Part shown: positions 1 to 27,149 of the stretch, piece after piece | Numbering within the stretch: position 1 is the first letter of the stretch | Layout: each line of letters starts with the position of its first letter | Assembly: GCF_965641715.1 (NCBI RefSeq) | Contig: NZ_OZ282453.1 | Length of the DNA: 64,000 bases | From: Escherichia coli | GTDB taxonomy: Bacteria > Pseudomonadota > Gammaproteobacteria > Enterobacterales > Enterobacteriaceae | Reading direction: 5' to 3' (one strand) | Notes under the pieces: model-generated | Database searches by the model: none | Seen by the model: the letters and a program-made list of their open reading frames with translations, nothing else | What the model was told of the DNA's origin: nothing | Position numbers and translations under genes: made by a program

Positions 1-135
1 ACCGCGACCCTGAAAGTGGGGAAACTGTATATCGATTACGACTACACCCCCGTCCCGCCGCTGGAAAATCTGACCCTGCGCCAGCGCATCACCGATACCT
101 ATCTGGCGAACCTGTCAGACTCGGTCAACAGCTAA
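1..135 (+). CDS. P2-like phage tail sheath protein (gpFI-like), 3' end only, truncated by window edge
   Basis: Open frame from window start to TAA at about 133-135, directly upstream of the tail tube gene; assignment by P2 gene order (FI-FII), not by a recognisable motif. Confidence 0.45.
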
Positions 136-147
136 GGAGCTCTGAGC

Positions 148-666
148 ATGGCGTTACCCCGCAAACTGAAATACCTGAACATGTTCAACGATGGCCTCAG
201 CTATATGGGCGTTGTTGAATCCGTCACCCTGCCAAAACTGACCCGCAAGCTGGAGAAATATCGCGGCGGCGGAATGCCGGGGGCGGTGTCGGTTGACCTC
301 GGCCTCGATGATGATGCGCTGTCGCTTGAGTGGACGCTCGGTGGTCTGCCTGACATTGAATTGTGGGTGCAGTACGCCTCGCCGGGTGCTGACAGTGTGC
401 CGCTGCGCTTTACCAGCTCTTATCAGCGTGACGACACCGGCGCGATTTCTGCCGTCGAGGTAGTGATGCGTGGCCGTCATAAAGAATACGACGGCGGTGA
501 AAACAAGCAGGGCGAAAGCGGCACGACCAAAATGGCGACCGAGTGCGCCTATTACCAGCTCACGATTGATGGCAAAGAAGTCATCGAAATTGACGTGATC
601 AACATGGTGCTGAAAGTCGACGGTGTCGACCGTATGGCAGAGCATCGCAAGGCGATTGGCCTGTAA
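148..666 (+). CDS. P2-like phage tail tube protein (gpFII family)
   Basis: 172-aa ORF in track, same length as P2 FII; sits in conserved order FII-E-T-U-D-ogr. Confidence 0.85.
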   Translation: MALPRKLKYLNMFNDGLSYMGVVESVTLPKLTRKLEKYRGGGMPGAVSVDLGLDDDALSLEWTLGGLPDIELWVQYASPGADSVPLRFTSSYQRDDTGAISAVEVVMRGRHKEYDGGENKQGESGTTKMATECAYYQLTIDGKEVIEIDVINMVLKVDGVDRMAEHRKAIGL

Positions 667-720
667 TCCCTCAACCGGTCAGCGGGGCTGGCCGGTCACT
701 TACCCTGATGAGAAATTCGC

Positions 721-1035
721 ATGAAAAATATCAATGAAACTGCTGTTGCTGGCACTGAAAACGTCAATCCGAATGTCGTTATTTTTGACACGCCGCTGAT
801 GCGTGGTGAGCAGAAAATTGAACAGGTCACCTTAACCAAACCAAACGCGGGAACCCTGCGCGGGGTGTCGCTGGCCTCGCTGGCAAGTTCCGACGTTGAC
901 GCGCTGATTAAGGTGCTGCCGCGCATGACGTATCCGGCACTGACCGAGCACGAGCTCGCGCGTCTGGATGCGTCAGACCTGATTTCGCTGGCCGGTAAGG
1001 TGGTCGGTTTTTTGTCACCGGCTTCGGGTCGCTGA
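721..1035 (+). CDS. P2-like tail assembly chaperone (gpE family), zero-frame product
   Basis: 104-aa ORF between tail tube and tape measure genes; contains slippery T TTT TTG near its 3' end as in P2 E/E+E'. Confidence 0.75.
   Translation: MKNINETAVAGTENVNPNVVIFDTPLMRGEQKIEQVTLTKPNAGTLRGVSLASLASSDVDALIKVLPRMTYPALTEHELARLDASDLISLAGKVVGFLSPASGR
1008..1014 (+). other. Programmed -1 ribosomal frameshift site (T TTT TTG) producing E+E' fusion that would terminate near 1190
   Basis: Heptamer TTTTTTG in the E frame (codons GGT TTT TTG); the -1 frame stays open from the slip site to a TAA overlapping the tape measure start (about 1188-1190). Conserved chaperone frameshift of long-tailed phages (lambda G/GT, P2 E/E+E'). 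Confidence 0.65.
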
Positions 1036-1179
1036 CCTTCCCGGAAAAACTGTCGGTCGATGACCTGATGGCGGATATCGCGGTGATCTTCCACTGGCCG
1101 CCATCAGAGCTAAATTCCCTGAGCGTGACCGAGCTCCTGACATGGCGCGATAAGGCGCTGCAACGAAGCGGAAGCCATC

Positions 1180-3621
1180 ATGAGCAATAACGTCAGAATC
1201 GAGGTGCTGCTGAACGCAGTCGACCGGGCAAGCCGCCCGCTTAAAGCGATTCAGAACGCCAGCAAATCCCTGTCCGGTGATATCCGCAATTCACAAAAAA
1301 GCCTGCGCGAACTTAATGCGCAGGCGTCCCGTATTGACGGATTCCGCAAAGCCAGCGCACAGCTTGCCGTGACCGGTCACTCGCTTGAGAAAGCGAAACA
1401 GGAAGCGCAAGCCCTTGTCACGCAATTTAAAAACACCGAGCGCCCGACACGTGCGCAGGCGCAGGTGCTTGAATCGGCAAAGCGTGCCGCCGACGGGCTG
1501 CAGACGAAATACAACAGCCTAACTGAGTCTGTGAAACGCCAGCAACGCGAGCTCGGTGCTGTCGGGATTAATACCCGTAATCTGGCAAATGATGAGCGGG
1601 GGCTCAAATCGCGCATCAGTGAGACGACTGCGCAGCTCAATCGGCAGCGTGAGGCACTGGCGAAAGTCAGCGCACAGCAGGCAAAGTTAAGCCGGGTGAA
1701 AGCGCGGTATCAGGCCGGTAAATCGCTTGCCGGTAGCATGGCGGCGGCTGGCGCGGCCGGTGTCGGTATTGCGACAACAGGAACCATGGCCGGGGTCAAG
1801 CTGCTGACGCCGGGTTATGAATTTGCACAGAAAAACTCAAAGCTGCAGGCAGTGCTCGGTGTCGACAAACAGTCGCCTGAAATGCAGGCGCTGCGTAAAC
1901 AAGCGCGCCAGCTCGGTGACAATACCGCTGCCTCTGCCGATGATGCGGCGGGTGCGCAGATTATCATCGCGAAAAGCGGCGGTGATGCGGCGGCCATTCA
2001 GGCGGCGACGCCGGTCACACTGAATATGGCGCTGTCCAACAAGCGCACGATGGAAGAGAACGCCGCGCTGCTGACGGGCATGAAATCCGCTTTCCAGCTC
2101 TCTAACGATAAAGTCGCGCATATTGGCGATGTTCTCTCGATGACGATGAACAAAACCGCCGCTGACTTTGACGGGATGAGCGATGCGCTGACCTATACCG
2201 CGCCGGTGGCGAAAAATGCCGGGGTGAGTATCGAAGAAACCGCCGCGATGGTGGGGGCGCTGCACGATTCTAAAATCACCGGCTCGATGGCGGGTACAGG
2301 GAGCCGTGCCGTTCTGAGTCGCCTGCAGGCGCCGACCGGTAAAGCCTACGACGCCATCAAAGAGCTCGGCATTAAAACGAGCGACAGCAAAGGCAATACG
2401 CGCCCGATATTTTCCATCCTGAAGGAAATGCAGCGCAGTTTTGAGAAAAACAATCTCGGAACGGGTCAGAAAGCCGAATACATGAAAACCATTTTCGGTG
2501 AAGAAGCCAGCTCAGCGGCCGCTGTGCTGATGGCCGCCGCATCAAACGGCAAGCTCGACCAGCTCACCGCCGCGTTTAAAGCCTCGGACGGCAAGACTGA
2601 GGAGCTGGTTAAGGTTATGCAGGATAACCTCGGCGGCGACTTTAAAGAGTTTCAGTCAGCCTATGAGGCGGTTGGCACTGACCTGTTTGATCAGCAGGAG
2701 GGCTCACTGCGTAAGCTGACGCAGACGGCCACGCAATATGTGCTCAGGCTCGACGGCTGGATCCAGAAAAATAAAGGGCTGGCGACCACCATCGGCGTGG
2801 TGGTCGGGGGTGCGCTGGCGCTGATTGGTGTAATGGGCGGGATTGGCCTTGTCGCATGGCCGGTGGTAATGGGGATTAATGCCATCATTGCGGCGGCTGG
2901 CGTGCTCGGTGTGGTTTTCAGTACGGTTGGAGGCGCGATTGTCACGGCCATTGGCGCAATCAGCCTGCCGGTGCTGGCGGTTGCCGGTGCCGTGGTGGCC
3001 GGTGCGTTGCTGATCCGTAAATACTGGGAGCCGCTCGGTGCATTTTTCTCGGGCGTGGTGGAGGGACTGAAAGCCGCCTTTGCACCGGTGGGGGACATGT
3101 TTACCCCGCTCGCGCCGGTGTTTGACGCCATCGCTGAAAAGCTGGGTGTCGTCTGCCAGTGGTTTAAAGACCTGCTTGCGCCGGTGAAAGCCACGCAGGA
3201 CACGCTCTCCAGTTGCAAAAATGTCGGCGTTACTTTTGGTCAGGCGCTGGCTGATGCGCTGATGATGCCGCTCAAGATGTTTAACAGCCTGAGCGGCAAG
3301 GTCGGCTGGCTGCTGGAGAAACTCGGCGTTATCAAAAAAGAATCCAGCGACCTCGACCAGACCGCAGCGAAAGCGAATAAGGCGTCCCCGAATGGCGGGT
3401 ATATCCCTGCGACCGCAGGTTATGGCGGGTATCAGGCGTATCAGCCGGTCACAGCGCCCGCAGGCCTGTCTTATATCGACCAGAGCAAAAGCGAATACAA
3501 CATCAACCTGCAGGGCGGAGTCGCACCGGGCAGTGACCTTGACCGCCAGCTCCGTGACGCGGTCGACAAACTTGACCGCGAGAAACGTGCGCGTCAGCGA
3601 TCCAGTATGAGACTCGACTGA
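1180..3621 (+). CDS. P2-like phage tail tape measure protein (gpT family)
   Basis: 813-aa ORF; Ala/Gln/Lys-rich N-terminal half and long Gly/Ala/Val-rich hydrophobic segment; position between E/E' and U. Confidence 0.9.
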   Translation: MSNNVRIEVLLNAVDRASRPLKAIQNASKSLSGDIRNSQKSLRELNAQASRIDGFRKASAQLAVTGHSLEKAKQEAQALVTQFKNTERPTRAQAQVLESAKRAADGLQTKYNSLTESVKRQQRELGAVGINTRNLANDERGLKSRISETTAQLNRQREALAKVSAQQAKLSRVKARYQAGKSLAGSMAAAGAAGVGIATTGTMAGVKLLTPGYEFAQKNSKLQAVLGVDKQSPEMQALRKQARQLGDNTAASADDAAGAQIIIAKSGGDAAAIQAATPVTLNMALSNKRTMEENAALLTGMKSAFQLSNDKVAHIGDVLSMTMNKTAADFDGMSDALTYTAPVAKNAGVSIEETAAMVGALHDSKITGSMAGTGSRAVLSRLQAPTGKAYDAIKELGIKTSDSKGNTRPIFSILKEMQRSFEKNNLGTGQKAEYMKTIFGEEASSAAAVLMAAASNGKLDQLTAAFKASDGKTEELVKVMQDNLGGDFKEFQSAYEAVGTDLFDQQEGSLRKLTQTATQYVLRLDGWIQKNKGLATTIGVVVGGALALIGVMGGIGLVAWPVVMGINAIIAAAGVLGVVFSTVGGAIVTAIGAISLPVLAVAGAVVAGALLIRKYWEPLGAFFSGVVEGLKAAFAPVGDMFTPLAPVFDAIAEKLGVVCQWFKDLLAPVKATQDTLSSCKNVGVTFGQALADALMMPLKMFNSLSGKVGWLLEKLGVIKKESSDLDQTAAKANKASPNGGYIPATAGYGGYQAYQPVTAPAGLSYIDQSKSEYNINLQGGVAPGSDLDRQLRDAVDKLDREKRARQRSSMRLD

Positions 3622-3634
3622 GGGAGGGATAAAA

Positions 3635-4099
3635 ATGTTAATGGGGCTGGGCTTTTTCGTGTTTGAACGGCGCACCCTGCCGCATCAGTCAATGCAGTAT
3701 TCGAAGGACTACCGCTGGGTGTCAAATGACCGTATCGGAAAACCCCCGGCTTATCAGTATCTCGGGGAGGGGGAAACCTCGCGTACCCTGTCGGGCACGC
3801 TTTACCCTGAAATCACCGGCGGGCGTCTGTCACTGATGGCCATCGAACTGATGGCCGATGAGGGGCGCGCATGGCCGCTGATTGACGGAACCGGCATGAT
3901 CCACGGGATGTATGTCATCGATAAAGTGACTCACAACCACACCGAGTTATTCAGCGACGGCGCGGCTAAAAAAATCGAGTTTAGCCTGTCGCTTAAGCGG
4001 GTGGATGAATCCCTCGCGGCCATCTACGGCGACCTGAAAACGCAGGCTGATAATCTGGTCACGTCTGCCGGTAACTGGCTCGGGGGGCTGGCGGGATGA
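3635..4099 (+). CDS. P2-like phage tail protein (gpU family)
   Basis: 154-aa ORF immediately after tape measure and overlapping gpD start by 4 nt; P2 synteny. Confidence 0.8.
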   Translation: MLMGLGFFVFERRTLPHQSMQYSKDYRWVSNDRIGKPPAYQYLGEGETSRTLSGTLYPEITGGRLSLMAIELMADEGRAWPLIDGTGMIHGMYVIDKVTHNHTELFSDGAAKKIEFSLSLKRVDESLAAIYGDLKTQADNLVTSAGNWLGGLAG

Positions 4100-5596: not shown

Positions 5597-5866
5597 CAAC
5601 TTTTAGATCAGTTATGTTAAGTACATTTCCGTCGGCAAAGTGCCAGGAGCGGGTTCTAGAGAGTGACTAACGTTAGTTATATGTGTAAAATTCCTTAAAA
5701 ATAAGAAGGATATATATCCATGACAGCAATTGCATATTGGATTAACTGAGAATCAATTGAGAAATTTTTGGGGGGCAAAAAATAAACTAGCTAATTAAAT
5801 TTTTATAAATAACGAATATAAGACTGCAAGCCATTTAACAAAAGTTTATAAATAAAGGAGTCAGTT

Positions 5867-21129: not shown

Positions 21130-21270
21130 GCCCCTCCCGAGGAAGGGGCCATAAATAAGGAAAGGGTCATGATGAAGATACTCATCATCGTGGTGCTCTT
21201 AGTGATTAGCTACCCAGCATACTAAGACTACCAGGGCGGGGGAACCCCCGCTCTACCCTCACTCCTGAAA
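21130..21270 (-). ncRNA. Sib-family antisense sRNA (antitoxin), copy 1; boundaries approximate
   Basis: Inferred from the Ibs/Sib architecture: Sib RNAs are about 140 nt and fully complementary to the ibs ORF on the opposite strand; ends not determinable from sequence alone. Confidence 0.4.
21169..21225 (+). CDS. Ibs-family type I toxin peptide, copy 1 (MMKILIIVVLLVISYPAY)
   Basis: 18-codon ORF with ATGATG start and hydrophobic core, hand-translated from the repeat unit; not in ORF track (below size cutoff). Confidence 0.6.
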   Translation: MMKILIIVVLLVISYPAY

Positions 21271-21457
21271 GTATGCCTTCACGTTCAGAATGTCAATCCG
21301 CAGGCTTTGCAGTCTGCGATCCTGCCAGCAAATATTCTTTGCGAGACGTTACGCAATAATCACACTTGAAACTATTTTATCCGCAAGTCAGCGATAGACT
21401 GCATACAGGGCGAAAGGAGGTAAGCCGAAGATTTCAGCGGGACGCTGAAACGGGAAA

Positions 21458-21598
21458 GCCCCTCCCGAGGAAGGGGCCTTAAATAAGGAAAGGGTCATGA
21501 TGAAGTGGATCATCATCGTGGTGCTCTTAGTTATTAGCTTGCCGGCTTACTAAGTCATCAAAGCGGGGGAAACCCCGCTCTACCCTCACTCCTGAAAG
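21458..21598 (-). ncRNA. Sib-family antisense sRNA, copy 2; boundaries approximate
   Basis: As copy 1, by repeat periodicity. Confidence 0.4.
21497..21553 (+). CDS. Ibs-family type I toxin peptide, copy 2 (MMKWIIIVVLLVISLPAY)
   Basis: 18-codon ORF at the equivalent position of repeat unit 2. Confidence 0.6.
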   Translation: MMKWIIIVVLLVISLPAY

Positions 21599-21784
21599 TA
21601 TGCCTTCACGGTCAGATTGTCAATCCGCAGGCTTTGCAGTCTGCGATCCTGCCAGCAAATATTCTTTGCGAGGCGTTACGCAATAATCACACTTGAAACT
21701 ATTTTATCCGCAAGTCAGCGATAGACTGCATACAGGGCGAAAGGAGGTAAGCCGAAGATTTCAGCGGGACGCTGAAACGGGAAA

Positions 21785-21925
21785 GCCCCTCCCGAGGAAG
21801 GGGCCTTAAATAAGGAAAGGGTCATGATGAAGCTACTCATCATCGTGGTGCTCTTAGTCATAAGCTTCCCCGCTTACTAAGACTACCAGGGCGGGGGAAC
21901 CCCCGCTCTACCCTCATTCCTGAAA
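21785..21925 (-). ncRNA. Sib-family antisense sRNA, copy 3; boundaries approximate
   Basis: As copy 1, by repeat periodicity. Confidence 0.4.
21824..21880 (+). CDS. Ibs-family type I toxin peptide, copy 3 (MMKLLIIVVLLVISFPAY)
   Basis: 18-codon ORF at the equivalent position of repeat unit 3. Confidence 0.6.
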   Translation: MMKLLIIVVLLVISFPAY

Positions 21926-22112
21926 GTATGCCTTCACGGTCAGATTGTCAATCTGCAGGCTTTGCAGTCTGCGATCCTGCCAGCAAATATTCTTTGCGAG
22001 ACGTTACGCAATAATCACACTGGAAACTATTTTATCCGCAAGTCAGCGATAGACTGCATGCATGGCGAAAGGAGGTAAGCCGACGATTTCAGCGGGATGC
22101 TGAAACGGGAAA

Positions 22113-22256
22113 GCCCCTCCCGAGGAAGGGGCCTTAAATAAGGAAAGGGTTATGATGAAGCACGTCATCATACTGGTGATACTCTTAGTGATTAGCTTCC
22201 AGGCTTACTAAGAACACCAGGGGGAGGGGGAAACCTCTCCTAACCCTCACTTCTGA
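22113..22256 (-). ncRNA. Sib-family antisense sRNA, copy 4; boundaries approximate
   Basis: As copy 1, by repeat periodicity. Confidence 0.4.
22152..22211 (+). CDS. Ibs-family type I toxin peptide, copy 4 (MMKHVIILVILLVISFQAY)
   Basis: 19-codon ORF in the most diverged, yegL-proximal repeat unit; closest to K-12 IbsA as I recall it. Confidence 0.6.
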   Translation: MMKHVIILVILLVISFQAY

Positions 22257-22430
22257 AATTATGTCACTCCGCCCTTAGTGTCAATCGACGGCTCTCCGTT
22301 CTTGCGAGGCGAATAGCAAAATTTTCTGCGCCGCCGGGCCTAATTCTGAAAGTTTCTTCGTTTGCTCTTATTTCATTATTGCAATCGGTATGATACCGGA
22401 CCTCAATAATTCTCTAAGAAAGGATTTCTT

Positions 22431-23090
22431 ATGAGCGAACAAATCACGTTTGCCACCAGCGATTTTGCCAGTAACCCGGAACCACGTTGCCCCTGCATTC
22501 TGCTGCTGGATGTATCTGGCTCGATGAGCGGCAGACCTATTAATGAACTTAACGCCGGATTGGTTACCTTTCGTGATGAACTGCTTGCTGATCCGCTGGC
22601 TTTAAAAAGAGTGGAACTCGGCATTGTGACGTTCGGCCCGGTGCATGTGGAACAACCCTTTACCAGCGCCGCTAACTTTTTCCCGCCCATCCTGTTTGCC
22701 CAGGGGGATACGCCTATGGGGGCCGCCATTACCAAAGCCCTGGATATGGTTGAAGAGAGGAAACGTGAGTACCGCGCAAATGGTATTTCGTATTATCGCC
22801 CGTGGATTTTCCTGATCACCGATGGCGCTCCAACCGATGAGTGGCAGGCTGCCGCCAACAAAGTGTTTCAGGGGGAAGAAGATAAGAAGTTTGCCTTCTT
22901 TTCCATCGGTGTTCAGGGGGCGGATATGAAGACTCTGGCACAAATCAGCGTTCGTCAGCCTTTGCCACTGCAGGGATTACAATTCCGTGAACTGTTTAGC
23001 TGGTTATCCAGTTCGCTGCGTTCGGTTTCCCGCTCCACGCCGGGAACGGAAGTTGTGCTGGAAGCGCCAAAAGGCTGGACGTCAGTGTGA
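22431..23090 (+). CDS. yegL: von Willebrand factor A (vWA) domain protein YegL (TerY-like)
   Basis: 219-aa ORF with vWA/MIDAS-type DxSxS motif ([11 protein letters not shown]); first gene of a three-gene overlapping operon. Confidence 0.9.
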
Positions 23091-23848
23091 GCTGGCGTCT
23101 GGTTTATGCATCCGCTGTTGGAACGTTGCACATTAGCGCTGATTTACCTTGTCAGGATGCCTGCCAGATGCAGGTTGCTTGGCTAAATGACCAGCAGCCA
23201 TTACTGGTGATGTTCCTTGCTGATGGCGCAGGTAGCGTTTCGCAGGGAGGAGAAGGCGCGAAGCTCGCCGTCAATGAAGCGATGGCGTTTATGGTGCAAA
23301 AAGTACAGGACGGTGAATTGGGGCTTAATGATGTTCTCGCCACAAATATGGTACTGACCATTCGTCAACGACTTTTTGCCGAGGCAGAAGCCAAAGCATT
23401 AGCAGTTCGCGATTTTGCCTGCACGTTTCTGGGATTGATTTCATCGGATAACGGCACATTGATTATGCAAATTGGCGACGGCGGTGTAGTGGTGGATTTG
23501 GGTCGTGGTCTGGAACTGCCGCTCACGCCGATGGTGGGTGAATATGCCAATATGACGCATTTCATTAGCGATGAAGATGCTGTTTCCAGACTGGAAACTT
23601 TCACCAGCACTGAGCGTGCGCATAAAGTTGCAGCATTTACGGATGGTATTCAGCGACTGGCGTTAAATATGCTGGATAATTCTCCTCATGTGCCTTTCTT
23701 TACCCCGTTTTTCAATGGACTGGCGTCAGCAACGCAGGAACAACTCGATTTATTACCTGAATTGTTAAAGCAGTTTTTGTCCAGCCCGGCGGTAAACGAG
23801 CGTACCGATGATGATAAAACGTTGGCACTGGCGCTGTGGTTACCATGA
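23087..23848 (+). CDS. yegK: PP2C-like protein phosphatase YegK
   Basis: 253-aa ORF; GTG start overlaps yegL stop (GTGA); recognised as E. coli YegK. Confidence 0.85.
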
Positions 23849-25785
23849 AACCCACTTTATATACTGCTACTGGTGAGTGCGTTACGCCAGGCCGTGAACT
23901 GGGCAAAGGCGGTGAAGGTGCGGTTTATGATATCGAGGAGTTTGCCGATAGCGTCGCCAAGATTTATCACACGCCGCCACCCGCCTTAAAACAGGACAAA
24001 CTTGCCTTTATGGCTGCGACAGCTGACGCGCAGTTGTTGAATTATGTCGCCTGGCCGCAGGCAACGCTTCACGGTGGACGAGGCGGAAAAGTTATCGGTT
24101 TTATGATGCCAAAAGTTTCTGGTAAAGAACCGATTCATATGATCTATAGCCCGGCACATCGTCGCCAGAGTTACCCTCATTGTGCGTGGGATTTTCTACT
24201 CTATGTTGCGCGCAATATTGCTTCATCTTTTGCTACGGTTCACGAGCACGGGCACGTCGTGGGTGACGTAAACCAGAACAGCTTTATGGTAGGTCGCGAC
24301 AGCAAAGTGGTGTTGATCGATAGTGACTCCTTTCAGATTAACGCCAATGGCACACTGCATTTATGCGAAGTCGGCGTGTCGCATTTTACGCCGCCAGAGC
24401 TACAAACCTTGCCATCATTTGTCGGTTTTGAACGTACCGCGAATCACGATAATTTTGGCCTTGCGTTGCTGATTTTTCACGTCTTGTTTGGTGGGCGGCA
24501 TCCTTATTCTGGTGTGCCGCTTATCTCTGATGCGGGTAATGCGCTGGAGACGGATATTGCCCATTTCCGTTATGCCTACGCGTCAGATAATCAGCGACGT
24601 GGTTTAAAACCGCCGCCACGATCTATTCCGCTGTCGATGTTACCGGGAGATGTTGAAGCCATGTTTCAGCAGGCATTCACGGAAAGTGGCGTGGCAACGG
24701 GGCGTCCGACGGCAAAAGCGTGGGTAGCGGCACTTGATTTACTACGCCAACAGTTAAAGAAATGTACCGTTTCGGCAATGCATGTTTACCCCGGTCATTT
24801 GACTGACTGCCCGTGGTGTGCGCTGGATAATCAAGGCGTTATCTATTTTATTGATCTCGGCGAAGAGGTCATTACCACCAGCGGTGATTTTGTGCTGACG
24901 AAAGTCTGGGCGATGGTGATGGCGTCAGTAGCACCGCCAGCATTGCAATTGCCATTACCCGATCATTTCCAACCGACTGGCAGGCCGCTTCCTTTAGGCC
25001 TGTTACGGCGCGAATACATCATTCTGATTGAGATCGCACTGTCAGCGTTATCGCTGTTGCTTTGCGGCCTTCAGGCAGAACCGCGTTATATTATTTTGGT
25101 TCCTGTGCTGGCGGCTATCTGGATTATTGGCAGTCTGACAAGCAAAGCTTATAAAGCAGAAATCCAGCAACGCCGTGAGGCATTTAATCGCGCGAAAATG
25201 GACTATGACCATTTAGTCAGCCAGATCCAACAGTTGGGCGGGCTGGAAGGTTTTATCGCCAAACGGACGATGCTCGAAAAAATGAAGGAAGAAATTCTCG
25301 GGTTACCGGAAGAAGAAAAACGTGCTCTGGCAGCACTTCACGACACTGCAAGGGAACGGCAGAAGCAGAAGTTTCTGGAGGGATTTTTTATTGATGCTGC
25401 CTCTATTCCCGGCGTTGGTCCTGCGCGTAAAGCGGCGTTACGGTCTTTTGGTATTGAAACAGCAGCGGATGTTACCCGTCGTGGCGTTAAGCAAGTTAAA
25501 GGGTTTGGCGACCATCTGACCCAGGCGGTTATCGACTGGAAAGCGAGCTGTGAACGCCGTTTTGTGTTCAGGCCGAACGAAGCGGTAACGCCAGCAGACA
25601 GACAGGCGGTAATGGCGAAAATGGCCGCCAAACGACATCGGCTGGAATCGGCGTTGACTGTCGGCGCGACAGAGTTGCAGCGATTCCGCCTTCATGCTCC
25701 AGCACGGACCATGCCGTTGATGGAACCGTTACGTCAGGCGGCAGAAAAACTGGCTCAGGCGCAGGCAGATTTAAGCCGCTGCTGA
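23836..25785 (+). CDS. yegI: Eukaryotic-like Ser/Thr protein kinase YegI
   Basis: 649-aa ORF (alternative ATG at about 23845); kinase-like N-terminal region, predicted TM segment mid-protein and coiled-coil C-terminal part; overlaps yegK by 13 nt. Confidence 0.9.
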   Translation: MVTMKPTLYTATGECVTPGRELGKGGEGAVYDIEEFADSVAKIYHTPPPALKQDKLAFMAATADAQLLNYVAWPQATLHGGRGGKVIGFMMPKVSGKEPIHMIYSPAHRRQSYPHCAWDFLLYVARNIASSFATVHEHGHVVGDVNQNSFMVGRDSKVVLIDSDSFQINANGTLHLCEVGVSHFTPPELQTLPSFVGFERTANHDNFGLALLIFHVLFGGRHPYSGVPLISDAGNALETDIAHFRYAYASDNQRRGLKPPPRSIPLSMLPGDVEAMFQQAFTESGVATGRPTAKAWVAALDLLRQQLKKCTVSAMHVYPGHLTDCPWCALDNQGVIYFIDLGEEVITTSGDFVLTKVWAMVMASVAPPALQLPLPDHFQPTGRPLPLGLLRREYIILIEIALSALSLLLCGLQAEPRYIILVPVLAAIWIIGSLTSKAYKAEIQQRREAFNRAKMDYDHLVSQIQQLGGLEGFIAKRTMLEKMKEEILGLPEEEKRALAALHDTARERQKQKFLEGFFIDAASIPGVGPARKAALRSFGIETAADVTRRGVKQVKGFGDHLTQAVIDWKASCERRFVFRPNEAVTPADRQAVMAKMAAKRHRLESALTVGATELQRFRLHAPARTMPLMEPLRQAAEKLAQAQADLSRC

Positions 25786-25796
25786 GCCATTTTCTT

Positions 25797-27149
25797 TTAA
25801 CGAAATACCACTTCCGCCCAGCGTGCCAGCCCGGCGGTGACGGAGCCAAAGTCATCGCCGCCTGCAATCGGAATGCCCGGCAACTGTTCTGCCAGCGCTT
25901 TTTTAATCAGCGGCGAACGGGCGCTACCGCCGGTCAGGTATATAACGTCCGGTTTTTCCTGGGCGTTATCCAGCGCCAGTTGCACCTGTTCCAGAATCCG
26001 CGCCAGTGGCTGGCTGAGGGCGCTTTCCAGCCCTTGCTGGCTAATCAGCGTAGCCAGTTCATCGCTGATAAACGGCAGTGAGGCGCGGGTTTCCGCTACG
26101 CTTGAAAGAGCGATTTTGCTCTCTTCTGCGCTGCGTACCAGGCGATAGCTTAAACGCTGACGCCAGACTTTCTGTAGCAGGGCCACTTTTTCCGGTTCGC
26201 GGGCATCGCGTACCAGATCGTTAAGCAGACGACCGTTGGCACTACTGTAGAAATCACTCTGCGCAGGTACGTCGTTGATGGCAACCGCATTCCACCACGG
26301 CAGAATCGGCAGGGCGATGCCTTTTTCGGTTTCGCCACCCATGCCCAGTAACGGCATCAGGTTTTTAAACGCCAGCGCGATATCCAGATCGTTACCGCCA
26401 ATACGGCAACCACTGTGACCCAGCAGGCTGGCTTCACGATCGAGACGCGAACGCCACTGCGGCCCCATCAGCAGCAATGAACAGTCAGTCGTACCACCGC
26501 CGATATCCACCACCAGCACCCGTTTTTCTTCCTGCAAGGTGGCTTCGTAATCCAGCCCAGCCGCGACCGGCTCGTACTGGAATACCACGTCCCTGAATCC
26601 GGCACGCTTCGCCGCGCGTTCCAGAATCCCTTGCGCCTGGGCGTTTGCTTCATCGCCGCCCAGCCCCTGGAAGTTGATCGGGCGACCAATCACCGCCTGA
26701 GTAATCGTTTCTGGCAGCTGTGCCTGCGCCTGCTGGCGAATGTGCAACATCATTGCGCAGACCAGATCCTCAAACAGCGCTACCTGCTGCGGTTTTAAGC
26801 CGCTGGCACCGAGGAACGATTTTGGTGATTTCACAAACCACACTTCTTCCGGATCATCAATGTACTGTGCCAGTGAGGAAAGACCGAACTGCACGCTTTT
26901 CGCCGTAACATCGATATCTTCTTCGCGGTTATAACGAATCGCCCGACGCAACAGCGCCTGCGTTTCATCGTCGTCTGCCGGAACATCATGATGGCGGTAC
27001 AGCCATTCGCTTACCGCTTCACGCGTTGGCGCGCAAAGCATTGAAGGCAGCAGCGTGCTGTCGTTTTCCATTTTTAGCAAGTGCGGTTTACCGTCACGCA
27101 TGACCGCCACTGAACAGTTTGCTGTACCGTAATCAAAACCAATAAACAC
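25797..27149 (-). CDS. yegD: Hsp70/actin-fold ATPase chaperone homologue YegD
   Basis: 450-aa product from GTG start (VFIGFDYGTANCSVAV...) inside track ORF 25797-27212; Hsp70-like phosphate loops (DIGGGTTD). Confidence 0.9.
   Translation of the reverse strand: MFIGFDYGTANCSVAVMRDGKPHLLKMENDSTLLPSMLCAPTREAVSEWLYRHHDVPADDDETQALLRRAIRYNREEDIDVTAKSVQFGLSSLAQYIDDPEEVWFVKSPKSFLGASGLKPQQVALFEDLVCAMMLHIRQQAQAQLPETITQAVIGRPINFQGLGGDEANAQAQGILERAAKRAGFRDVVFQYEPVAAGLDYEATLQEEKRVLVVDIGGGTTDCSLLLMGPQWRSRLDREASLLGHSGCRIGGNDLDIALAFKNLMPLLGMGGETEKGIALPILPWWNAVAINDVPAQSDFYSSANGRLLNDLVRDAREPEKVALLQKVWRQRLSYRLVRSAEESKIALSSVAETRASLPFISDELATLISQQGLESALSQPLARILEQVQLALDNAQEKPDVIYLTGGSARSPLIKKALAEQLPGIPIAGGDDFGSVTAGLARWAEVVFR

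Follow-up and report, generated by a model that had tools for sequence, protein, structure and literature searches.

The window analysed here, a stretch of 64,000 nucleotides of Escherichia coli DNA (contig NZ_OZ282453.1 of assembly GCF_965641715.1), holds three co-directional open reading frames on its plus strand (22431-23090, 23087-23848 and 23836-25785 in the program-made list), and these make up the yegL-pphC-yegI operon, called yegLKI below since pphC is also yegK. The region is already annotated and its enzymology is already known, and what interests us most is how the operon relates to the TerY-P systems of other bacteria and what such a phosphorylation switch might be doing in E. coli. 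Megablast against 5426 complete E. coli genomes gives the RefSeq names yegL, pphC (yegK) and yegI, in agreement with the identities proposed in an initial annotation made from the sequence alone, and the genes lie as follows.

22431 to 23090, plus strand: yegL, a TerY-like vWA protein of 219 amino acids, ATG start (open reading frame, Pfam, RefSeq name)
23087 to 23848, plus strand: pphC (yegK), a PP2C-type Ser/Thr phosphatase of 253 amino acids, GTG start (open reading frame, Pfam PP2C_2)
23845 to 25785, plus strand: yegI, a membrane Ser/Thr kinase of 646 amino acids, ATG start (open reading frame, RefSeq, homologues)

The yegL stop codon TGA (23088-23090) shares bases with the yegK start codon GTG (23087-23089), and the raw sequence confirms the GTGA that the initial annotation had described there. 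The same annotation gave yegK and yegI a 13-nucleotide overlap, which is what the longest version of the yegI reading frame implies (GTG at 23836, 649 amino acids), but an in-frame ATG at 23845 shares bases with the yegK stop codon as ATGA (23845-23848, again in the raw sequence). We take this ATG as the start because three lines agree on it: RefSeq/PGAP chose it in the closest genome (pphC ending at 5851, yegI starting at 5848), a ‘four nucleotide overlap’ of yegK and yegI stands in the published description (bioRxiv 10.1101/819920), and the methionine of ATG-23845 is the N-terminal start of 23 of 23 aligned YegI homologues. GTG 23836 is thereby ruled out as the true start, and although yegK and yegI do overlap whichever start is taken, the overlap measures 4 nucleotides and not 13. 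The three genes are translationally coupled. The proposed domain order of vWA, PP2C and Ser/Thr kinase is borne out too, since YegL matches Pfam VWA (1.6e-9) and VWA_2 (5.8e-7) and YegK matches PP2C_2 (5.2e-47), while YegI, which has no Pfam kinase (Pkinase) match, has a published kinase activity.

The question of whether yegLKI is a TerY-P system has an answer with two sides. As originally defined (Anantharaman, Iyer & Aravind 2012, as summarised in PMC11090510), a TerY-P triad combines a vWA protein like TerY with a PP2C phosphatase and with a Ser/Thr kinase whose C-terminus is joined to a zinc ribbon, and the elements of that definition, as restated in PMC11090510, are all to be found here: a vWA protein with a MIDAS site, an adjacent PP2C gene and a zinc-ribbon kinase, in adjacent co-directional genes. 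For each Yeg protein about 50 homologues went into a family profile, and the profiles were compared by hhalign with the triad of a ter plasmid (locus L007): the YegL profile matched TerY1 with a probability of 99.8% (E 3e-28), TerY2 with 99.5% and TerY-C with 99.3%, the YegK profile matched the plasmid PP2C protein with 98.8% (E 5.7e-17), and the YegI profile matched the plasmid kinase with 99.0% (E 6.7e-18), in an alignment that passes through the zinc ribbon, taking in the C...C...CPYC of the plasmid kinase. The ter-linked TerY-P triad, known from the IncHI2/IncHI1B tellurite-resistance plasmids, has the same domain types in the same order on a single strand, and in tblastn YegL and plasmid TerY share 29-36% identity (E 1e-11 to 4e-17). 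There are of course differences. The plasmid version has three TerY paralogues together with TerX/TerD and lies in the ter cluster, whereas yegLKI is free-standing and has only one vWA gene; the plasmid PP2C protein runs to 577 amino acids with an extra N-terminal half, against the 253 of YegK; and the plasmid kinase is 499 amino acids long, its alignment to YegI stopping near its residue 404 and taking in nothing that corresponds to the membrane hairpin, coiled-coil stalk and helix-hairpin-helix head of YegI.

The other side concerns the TerY-P systems that have been tested against phages. That TerY-P systems give phage resistance, which the initial annotation had put forward, is upheld by the literature (PMC11090510, PMC7699616, PMC10889362): TerY-P-like modules with an OB fold at the end of the kinase are stand-alone anti-phage systems (Gao et al. 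2020, as summarised in PMC11090510), activity against T7-like phages is described in PMC7699616 and PMC11090510, other TerY-P triads protect from T7-like phages without collapse of the culture (PMC11090510; PMC10889362), and a Pseudomonas aeruginosa TerY-P variant does so for Autographiviridae, likewise without collapse (Costa et al. 2024). As a positive control for a validated system we used the TerY-p triad of E. coli G3/10 (locus L006, 8200-11459) that was employed by Stokar-Avihail et al.; PGAP names it ‘TerY-P anti-phage system’, it sits in an island with IS5 and type I restriction-modification, and its proteins match the TerY, PP2C and STK_OB models of PADLOC-DB v2 at 3.5e-173, 5.6e-108 and 9e-265. 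Against those same models YegL reached E=0.013 and 13 bits (PDLC02224), short of significance, YegK gave no match even at E<=10 (PDLC02222) and YegI gave none (PDLC02223). BLASTP of YegL, YegK and YegI against the G3/10 proteins returned E values of 0.006, 1.3 and 0.029, and hhalign with the Yeg profiles returned probabilities of 89%, 0.8% and 82%, so that orthology of yegLKI with the G3/10 or Gao TerY-P is rejected by all three approaches.

The Gao-type systems share the vWA, phosphatase and kinase gene order with yegLKI and also stand alone, beside restriction-modification genes. Their kinase ends in an OB fold where YegI ends in its membrane hairpin, stalk and head, and they form a rare accessory island found in 5 of 5426 E. 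coli genomes, as opposed to the core yegLKI locus, present in 5416. Both the rare accessory TerY-P and the near-universal yegLKI thus occur within one collection of E. coli genomes. On whether the variant of Costa et al. 2024 is of the YegLKI type, the translated primers gave no informative peptide match, and the primers themselves found no exact match in metagenome or viral contigs and no fuzzy match in the loci that were fetched. Because the profiles match the ter-plasmid triad and not the G3/10 proteins, we assign yegLKI, on sequence similarity, to the TerY-P triad class as originally defined, as a relative of the ter-linked triad, and by the same comparisons place it outside the family with demonstrated anti-phage activity. 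The initial annotation had called the triad TerY-P-like and had named beforehand a lack of significant similarity to TerY-P components as a point on which this could fail; with the experimentally tested components the PADLOC and BLASTP similarities turned out not to be significant, and the label survives for the relationship to the ter-linked triad, zinc ribbon included, and lapses for the tested TerY-P components. Since yegLKI lies outside the validated family, the anti-phage phenotype of that family cannot simply be transferred to it.

Within the three proteins we distinguish these features.

22509 to 22523, plus strand: MIDAS metal-site motif D-V-S-G-S, YegL residues 27-31 (sequence and alignment)
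22995 to 23039, plus strand: Ser/Thr-rich C-terminal tail of YegL (conserved across phyla in a 52-sequence alignment)
23845 to 24750, plus strand: atypical Hanks-type kinase domain of YegI, with GKGGEG loop, VAK lysine, VGDVNQNS catalytic loop, DSD for DFG, and TPPE
24763 to 24819, plus strand: zinc-ribbon-like C-x5-H-x8-C-P-W-C of YegI (C307, H313, C322, C325), invariant in the homologue alignment
25000 to 25143, plus strand: membrane hairpin of two hydrophobic helices with a 5-residue loop (Kyte-Doolittle peaks at residues ~400 and 424)
25162 to 25782, plus strand: C-terminal cytoplasmic module, an antiparallel coiled-coil stalk with a small head (AlphaFold, mean predicted local distance difference test score, pLDDT, of 95.1)
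25387 to 25554, plus strand: two helix-hairpin-helix motifs in the YegI head (Pfam HHH_5 E=0.008, motifs)

YegL, which would be the metal-binding adaptor of the operon, was noted as a vWA gene by Rajagopalan and Dworkin and then passed over in biochemical work, and yet it is the best conserved member of the triad across phyla, at 50-85% identity, compared with 29-64% for YegK and 30-62% for YegI. Its MIDAS site is complete, with DxSxS...T...D conserved; over 52 homologues the MIDAS positions are 80-100% conserved, as are the threonine of GDTPMG and the aspartate of ITDG, and its Ser/Thr-rich tail is a candidate phospho-acceptor. In YegK the motifs ADGAGS, QIGDG, FTDG and DDDKT are conserved in the homologue alignment, metal-binding aspartates included, and the protein, PphC, is a Mn2+-dependent PP2C-like phosphatase that is inactivated by D46N, that dephosphorylates YegI (Rajagopalan and Dworkin, bioRxiv 10.1101/303594) and that does without two of the eight canonical PP2C residues (bioRxiv 10.1101/303594).

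YegI combines Hanks-type features (Gly loop, VAK lysine, catalytic Asp, TPPE) with the non-canonical loops VGDxxQxS and DSD, and the Gly loop, the VAK lysine, VGDVNQNS, DSD and TPPE are invariant in 24 homologues. Among kinase models it finds weak matches to the NCBIfam LanL kinase (3e-6) and to PADLOC PD-T4-6 (2e-4). Despite those loops it is an active autophosphorylating Ser/Thr kinase (Rajagopalan and Dworkin, bioRxiv 10.1101/819920), a two-pass inner-membrane protein with both termini in the cytoplasm according to PhoA-LacZ topology (bioRxiv 10.1101/819920), and in the literature it autophosphorylates on activation-loop serines from which PphC takes the phosphates off, thereby keeping the kinase off. 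The zinc ribbon of YegI is predicted from its motif and from the alignment to the ter-plasmid kinase. The GFG motifs and GVGPARKAALRSFGIETAADV of the C-terminal module are conserved from Actinobacteria to Cyanobacteria, and the module may bind DNA. Structure-based searches were less telling: Foldseek with the C-terminal module returned generic coiled coils (SMC, dynein stalk, Rad50), none significant, and a PDB-sequence profile search of that module gave only sub-threshold HhH-like matches to archaeal L32e and Pol IV (E 0.1-0.8), while a model of the whole of YegI, with a shallow alignment behind it, had a poor kinase half (mean pLDDT 63.6) and found kinases by Foldseek at a non-significant E of ~0.03. 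In the light of the published work the description of the triad as ‘functionally ill-defined’, which we started from, is fair for its physiological role and out of date for PphC and YegI, whose phosphatase and kinase activities are proven.

A further comparison is with bacterial Hanks-type kinase and PP2C pairs such as PknB/PstP, PrkC/PrpC and Stk1/Stp1, which are likewise co-operonic and in which the phosphatase reverses kinase autophosphorylation as PphC does for YegI in the published experiments. YegI differs from the kinases of such pairs in its VGDxxQxS catalytic loop, in having DSD instead of DFG and in lacking an extracytoplasmic sensor domain, both of its termini being cytoplasmic; PphC differs from a canonical PP2C in the two missing residues; and yegLKI adds an obligatory, highly conserved vWA partner. 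A kinase that is held off by its own phosphatase raises the thought of a toxin and its antidote, in other words of an abortive-infection pair with an adaptor, in which free YegI would be toxic, PphC would be the antidote, and infection would release the kinase and lead to arrest or death. The direct reversal of YegI autophosphorylation by PphC fits this, as does the tight translational coupling, which would fix the ratio of phosphatase to kinase; both YegL and YegI count among the proteins that promote DNA damage when overproduced (Xia et al., bioRxiv 10.1101/354589) and so are deleterious in excess, and the YegI kinase region is weakly similar to the single-gene kinase defence PD-T4-6. On the other hand, YegI has been overexpressed in and purified from E. 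coli, and P. aeruginosa TerY-P, albeit maybe of a different family, protects whether the multiplicity of infection is low or high, most cells living on, and so is not abortive. Overall we consider this explanation improbable.

Beyond E. coli, the cassette turns up in a distribution that is wide and patchy at the same time. Full-length YegI homologues are at least 92% identical within Escherichia and then drop to about 60% elsewhere, sporadic homologues from Klebsiella, Piscinibacter and Chromobacterium being about equally close, and there are many metagenomic matches. A scan of one genome per species yielded 62 cassette loci, in Beta-, Alpha- and Gammaproteobacteria, Acidobacteria, Cyanobacteria, Actinobacteria, Planctomycetes, Nitrospira, Chloroflexi, Verrucomicrobia and Myxococcota. 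At every locus that includes upstream DNA the kinase gene comes after a YegL-like and a YegK-like gene, neighbouring genes overlapping or standing a few bases apart. Because this order recurs in more than 50 loci from many phyla, the arrangement of yegLKI is not a matter of chance. Among 1.84 billion representatives there are 3216 clusters (50% identity) at E<=1e-30, the best of them mostly full length at 640-660 amino acids. The cassette is, in short, a mobile unit whose order and size are conserved across many phyla. Nine chromosomal loci outside Escherichia were sampled for their genomic context, with the following neighbours.

L080: Tn7-like tnsA/B, and Avs2 (E=0) some 2.7 kb upstream, three small genes separating it from the triad
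L008: PifA (1e-118), IetA (3e-143), AbiH, and Tn7-like tnsABC-tniQ
L079: PDC-S26, an OLD/AriA-like ATPase and a large STAND-like protein
L005: a PDC-S36/PD-T4-1-like nuclease, a WYL/BrxR regulator and JetB
L010: type I restriction-modification and Mrr
L003: GmrSD, type I restriction-modification and SymE
L081: transposases
L011: mostly unannotated genes
L009: housekeeping genes alone

In other bacteria, then, the cassette is frequently in defence islands or in transposon cargo, and it may move as cargo of Tn7-like elements that favour a particular insertion site. A few further details of these contexts deserve mention. On two unrelated betaproteobacterial contigs (at 1090-2994 of L010 and 14905-16665 of L080) the island with the triad abuts the same comEC and CP_ATPgrasp genes. 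In the backbones of Pseudomonas megaplasmids (L077, 3377-9707; L078, 3879-9704) a triad of 220, 252 and 648 amino acids occupies a conserved segment, with a umuD-like S24 peptidase and a Y-family polymerase immediately upstream and HU, TraR/DksA and RNase HII nearby. Several Betaproteobacteria and Planctomycetes have, directly upstream of their YegL-like gene, a conserved basic open reading frame of about 69 amino acids (MKFGMRKPS...APRGWGWLTNPKRAAYNRVYSRTTFS...), located at 7719-7928 in L005, 8075-8284 in L010, 7700-7912 in L011, ~2289-2483 in L070 and ~8095-8289 in L073; it is 62-87% identical across phyla and absent from the window, a secreted-looking SNase gene separates it from the vWA gene in four loci, and it may be an optional fourth component.

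The neighbours can also be read in another way, which agrees with the first interpretation of TerY-P triads, as phosphorylation switches that sense metal and are tied to ter stress-response operons (as summarised in PMC11090510). On this account, the main rival of the one we prefer, yegLKI would be a chromosomal module for stress or DNA-damage signalling, not for defence against phages, and would pass on to host targets a signal related to DNA, metal or the envelope. Outside its own family it is, after all, closest in sequence to the ter-operon-linked TerY, PP2C and kinase, it belongs to the E. coli core genome, where YegL is under strong purifying selection, its kinase carries a helix-hairpin-helix head, and the overproduction of YegL or YegI raises endogenous DNA damage. 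Genes of DNA metabolism lie close to it in several settings, namely alkA in the window, umuDC-like genes, HU and RNase HII on the Pseudomonas megaplasmids, LexA in L009 and comEC in L010 and L080, and the 50-85% identity of YegL across phyla is easier to reconcile with a conserved partner in the cell than with an arms race. Pulling the other way are the very patchy distribution and clear horizontal transfer, betaproteobacterial homologues being as close as Klebsiella ones, the known defence systems and Tn7-like transposition genes that flank the cassette in most contexts examined, and the fact that no stress phenotype or inducing condition has been reported. We see this as possible and lean against it.

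In the window itself the triad lies beside an array of four tandem Ibs/Sib type I toxin-antitoxin modules (21154-22284, between mdtA and yegL, with the Sib RNAs on the minus strand and the Ibs reading frames on the plus strand), just where the initial annotation had put it; the four Rfam SIB_RNA matches score 127-142 bits against a gathering score of 56. The number of copies varies from strain to strain, with 2 in an ST131 strain and in a K-12-like one, 3 in 08-3918 and 4 in TB06052 and the window. Beyond these modules, upstream of yegL, mdtA is on the opposite strand, and at the other end yegD converges on yegI with the two stop codons 11 nucleotides apart (25785-25797). The gap contains no terminator-like hairpin, so either transcript would run into the other gene. 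A scan for promoters and terminators gave counts equal to those of shuffled controls, with no site upstream of yegL or between yegI and yegD. In the window pphC and yegI are uninterrupted and there is no yegJ; in K-12-type strains an opposite-strand yegJ lies between them (3983-4444 of L075, K-12-like JME66), an insertion that breaks the coupling and gives YegI another N-terminus, and K-12 has a recorded H-NS site at yegI/yegJ. Composition lends no support to a recent transfer, the G+C content of the triad (0.49-0.53, with 0.54-0.60 in the flanks) being near the E. coli average.

Could the locus simply be a leftover? One might suppose that yegLKI is a cryptic relic, in effect without function, of a cassette which was acquired horizontally long ago and whose transcription has fallen silent in E. 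coli, and several facts do lend themselves to this: no robust expression has been found in laboratory conditions, there is the H-NS site in K-12, yegJ splits pphC from yegI in K-12-type strains, and no consensus promoter or terminator rises above chance. The population data tell a different story. Of the 5416 genomes with yegLKI, 5402 have it at 80% coverage or more, all three reading frames being intact in these as in the alleles compared, and pairwise comparison of five alleles (the window, L001, L074, L075 and L076) puts the ratio of non-synonymous to synonymous rates (dN/dS) at 0.02-0.09 for yegL, 0.12-0.30 for yegK and 0.12-0.22 for yegI, values that are far below 1 throughout. The catalytic and metal-binding residues are invariant, and silent decay over such a time span would have given pseudogenes. 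The operon is thus kept by purifying selection though reportedly almost silent, and a functionless remnant, being contradicted by the selection data, strikes us as very improbable indeed; this and the toxin-antidote pair are the less likely explanations. At 7-9% amino-acid difference among these E. coli alleles, yegK is unusually divergent, and its synonymous divergence (dS) of 0.17-0.32 exceeds the 0.05-0.18 of mdtA, yegD and alkA, with yegL dS raised too, which suggests old allelic lineages or recombination at the locus.

How might all of this fit together? We think that a defence or stress-switch role for yegLKI is plausible, and the interpretation we prefer is that of a TerY-P-class phosphorylation switch, normally silent, that acts as a conditional defence or stress module against invading DNA. 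In such a scheme the three proteins would form a self-contained switch that is off by default and is turned on conditionally against phage or mobile elements. A trigger would be sensed by the helix-hairpin-helix head on its stalk under the membrane, by the MIDAS site of YegL or by both, and would shift the balance between kinase and phosphatase, whereupon YegI would phosphorylate YegL, perhaps on its Ser-rich tail, and/or proteins of the host or the invader, so that the invader is blocked. In its favour we count the published enzymology, the homology to the ter-plasmid triad, the conservation of the cassette and its defence or mobile surroundings elsewhere, the purifying selection in E. coli, the protection that other TerY-P triads give from T7-like phages, and the DNA-damage scores of overproduced YegL and YegI. 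The part of this that concerns the identity of the triad is near certain, the combined proposal as a whole seems to us evenly poised, and defence taken on its own we hold more loosely, as a tentative idea that falls short of even.

A good deal speaks against it, and the points are best considered together. yegLKI has no significant similarity to the validated TerY-P proteins; its near-universal presence in the core genome, among housekeeping neighbours (mdtABCD, yegD and alkA), is unusual for a defence system; one of the nine contexts sampled elsewhere holds housekeeping genes alone; the helix-hairpin-helix call consists of a weak Pfam match and motifs, for which the fold searches gave no significant match; and the promoter scan upstream of yegL stays at the level of chance. 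The locus is native to laboratory B and K-12 strains of E. coli, and these strains show full sensitivity to the classical T phages. Likewise, the Gao-type TerY-p was scored for defence in MG1655, a background that already carries yegL-pphC-yegJ-yegI. Because these locus-bearing strains are phage sensitive and the assay background has the locus too, expression at native levels gives no obvious protection. The characterisers of the two enzymes found no conditions of robust expression (bioRxiv 10.1101/303594, 10.1101/819920), and in the literature searched no phage, stress or substrate phenotype is reported for yegL, yegK or yegI, nor any link with phages.

The broadest form of the idea, and one of which we are distinctly doubtful, is that the family of roughly 3200 clusters (50% identity) of stand-alone triads, which have in common a vWA protein, a PP2C phosphatase and a membrane kinase with zinc ribbon, coiled-coil stalk and helix-hairpin-helix head, and which are missed by the present models of defence finders, would be an anti-phage or anti-mobile-DNA system that senses DNA at the inner face of the membrane and has become core and silent in Escherichia. 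If this were true, E. coli would carry a universal and overlooked immune module. E. coli has very few Ser/Thr kinase-phosphatase pairs, YegI and PphC among them, and YegL, the component left aside so far, is the most conserved of the three and has a Ser-rich tail. Should a defence role be proven, the best-studied bacterium would turn out to have an immune module in its core genome, and should it prove negative, a small signalling pathway would remain.

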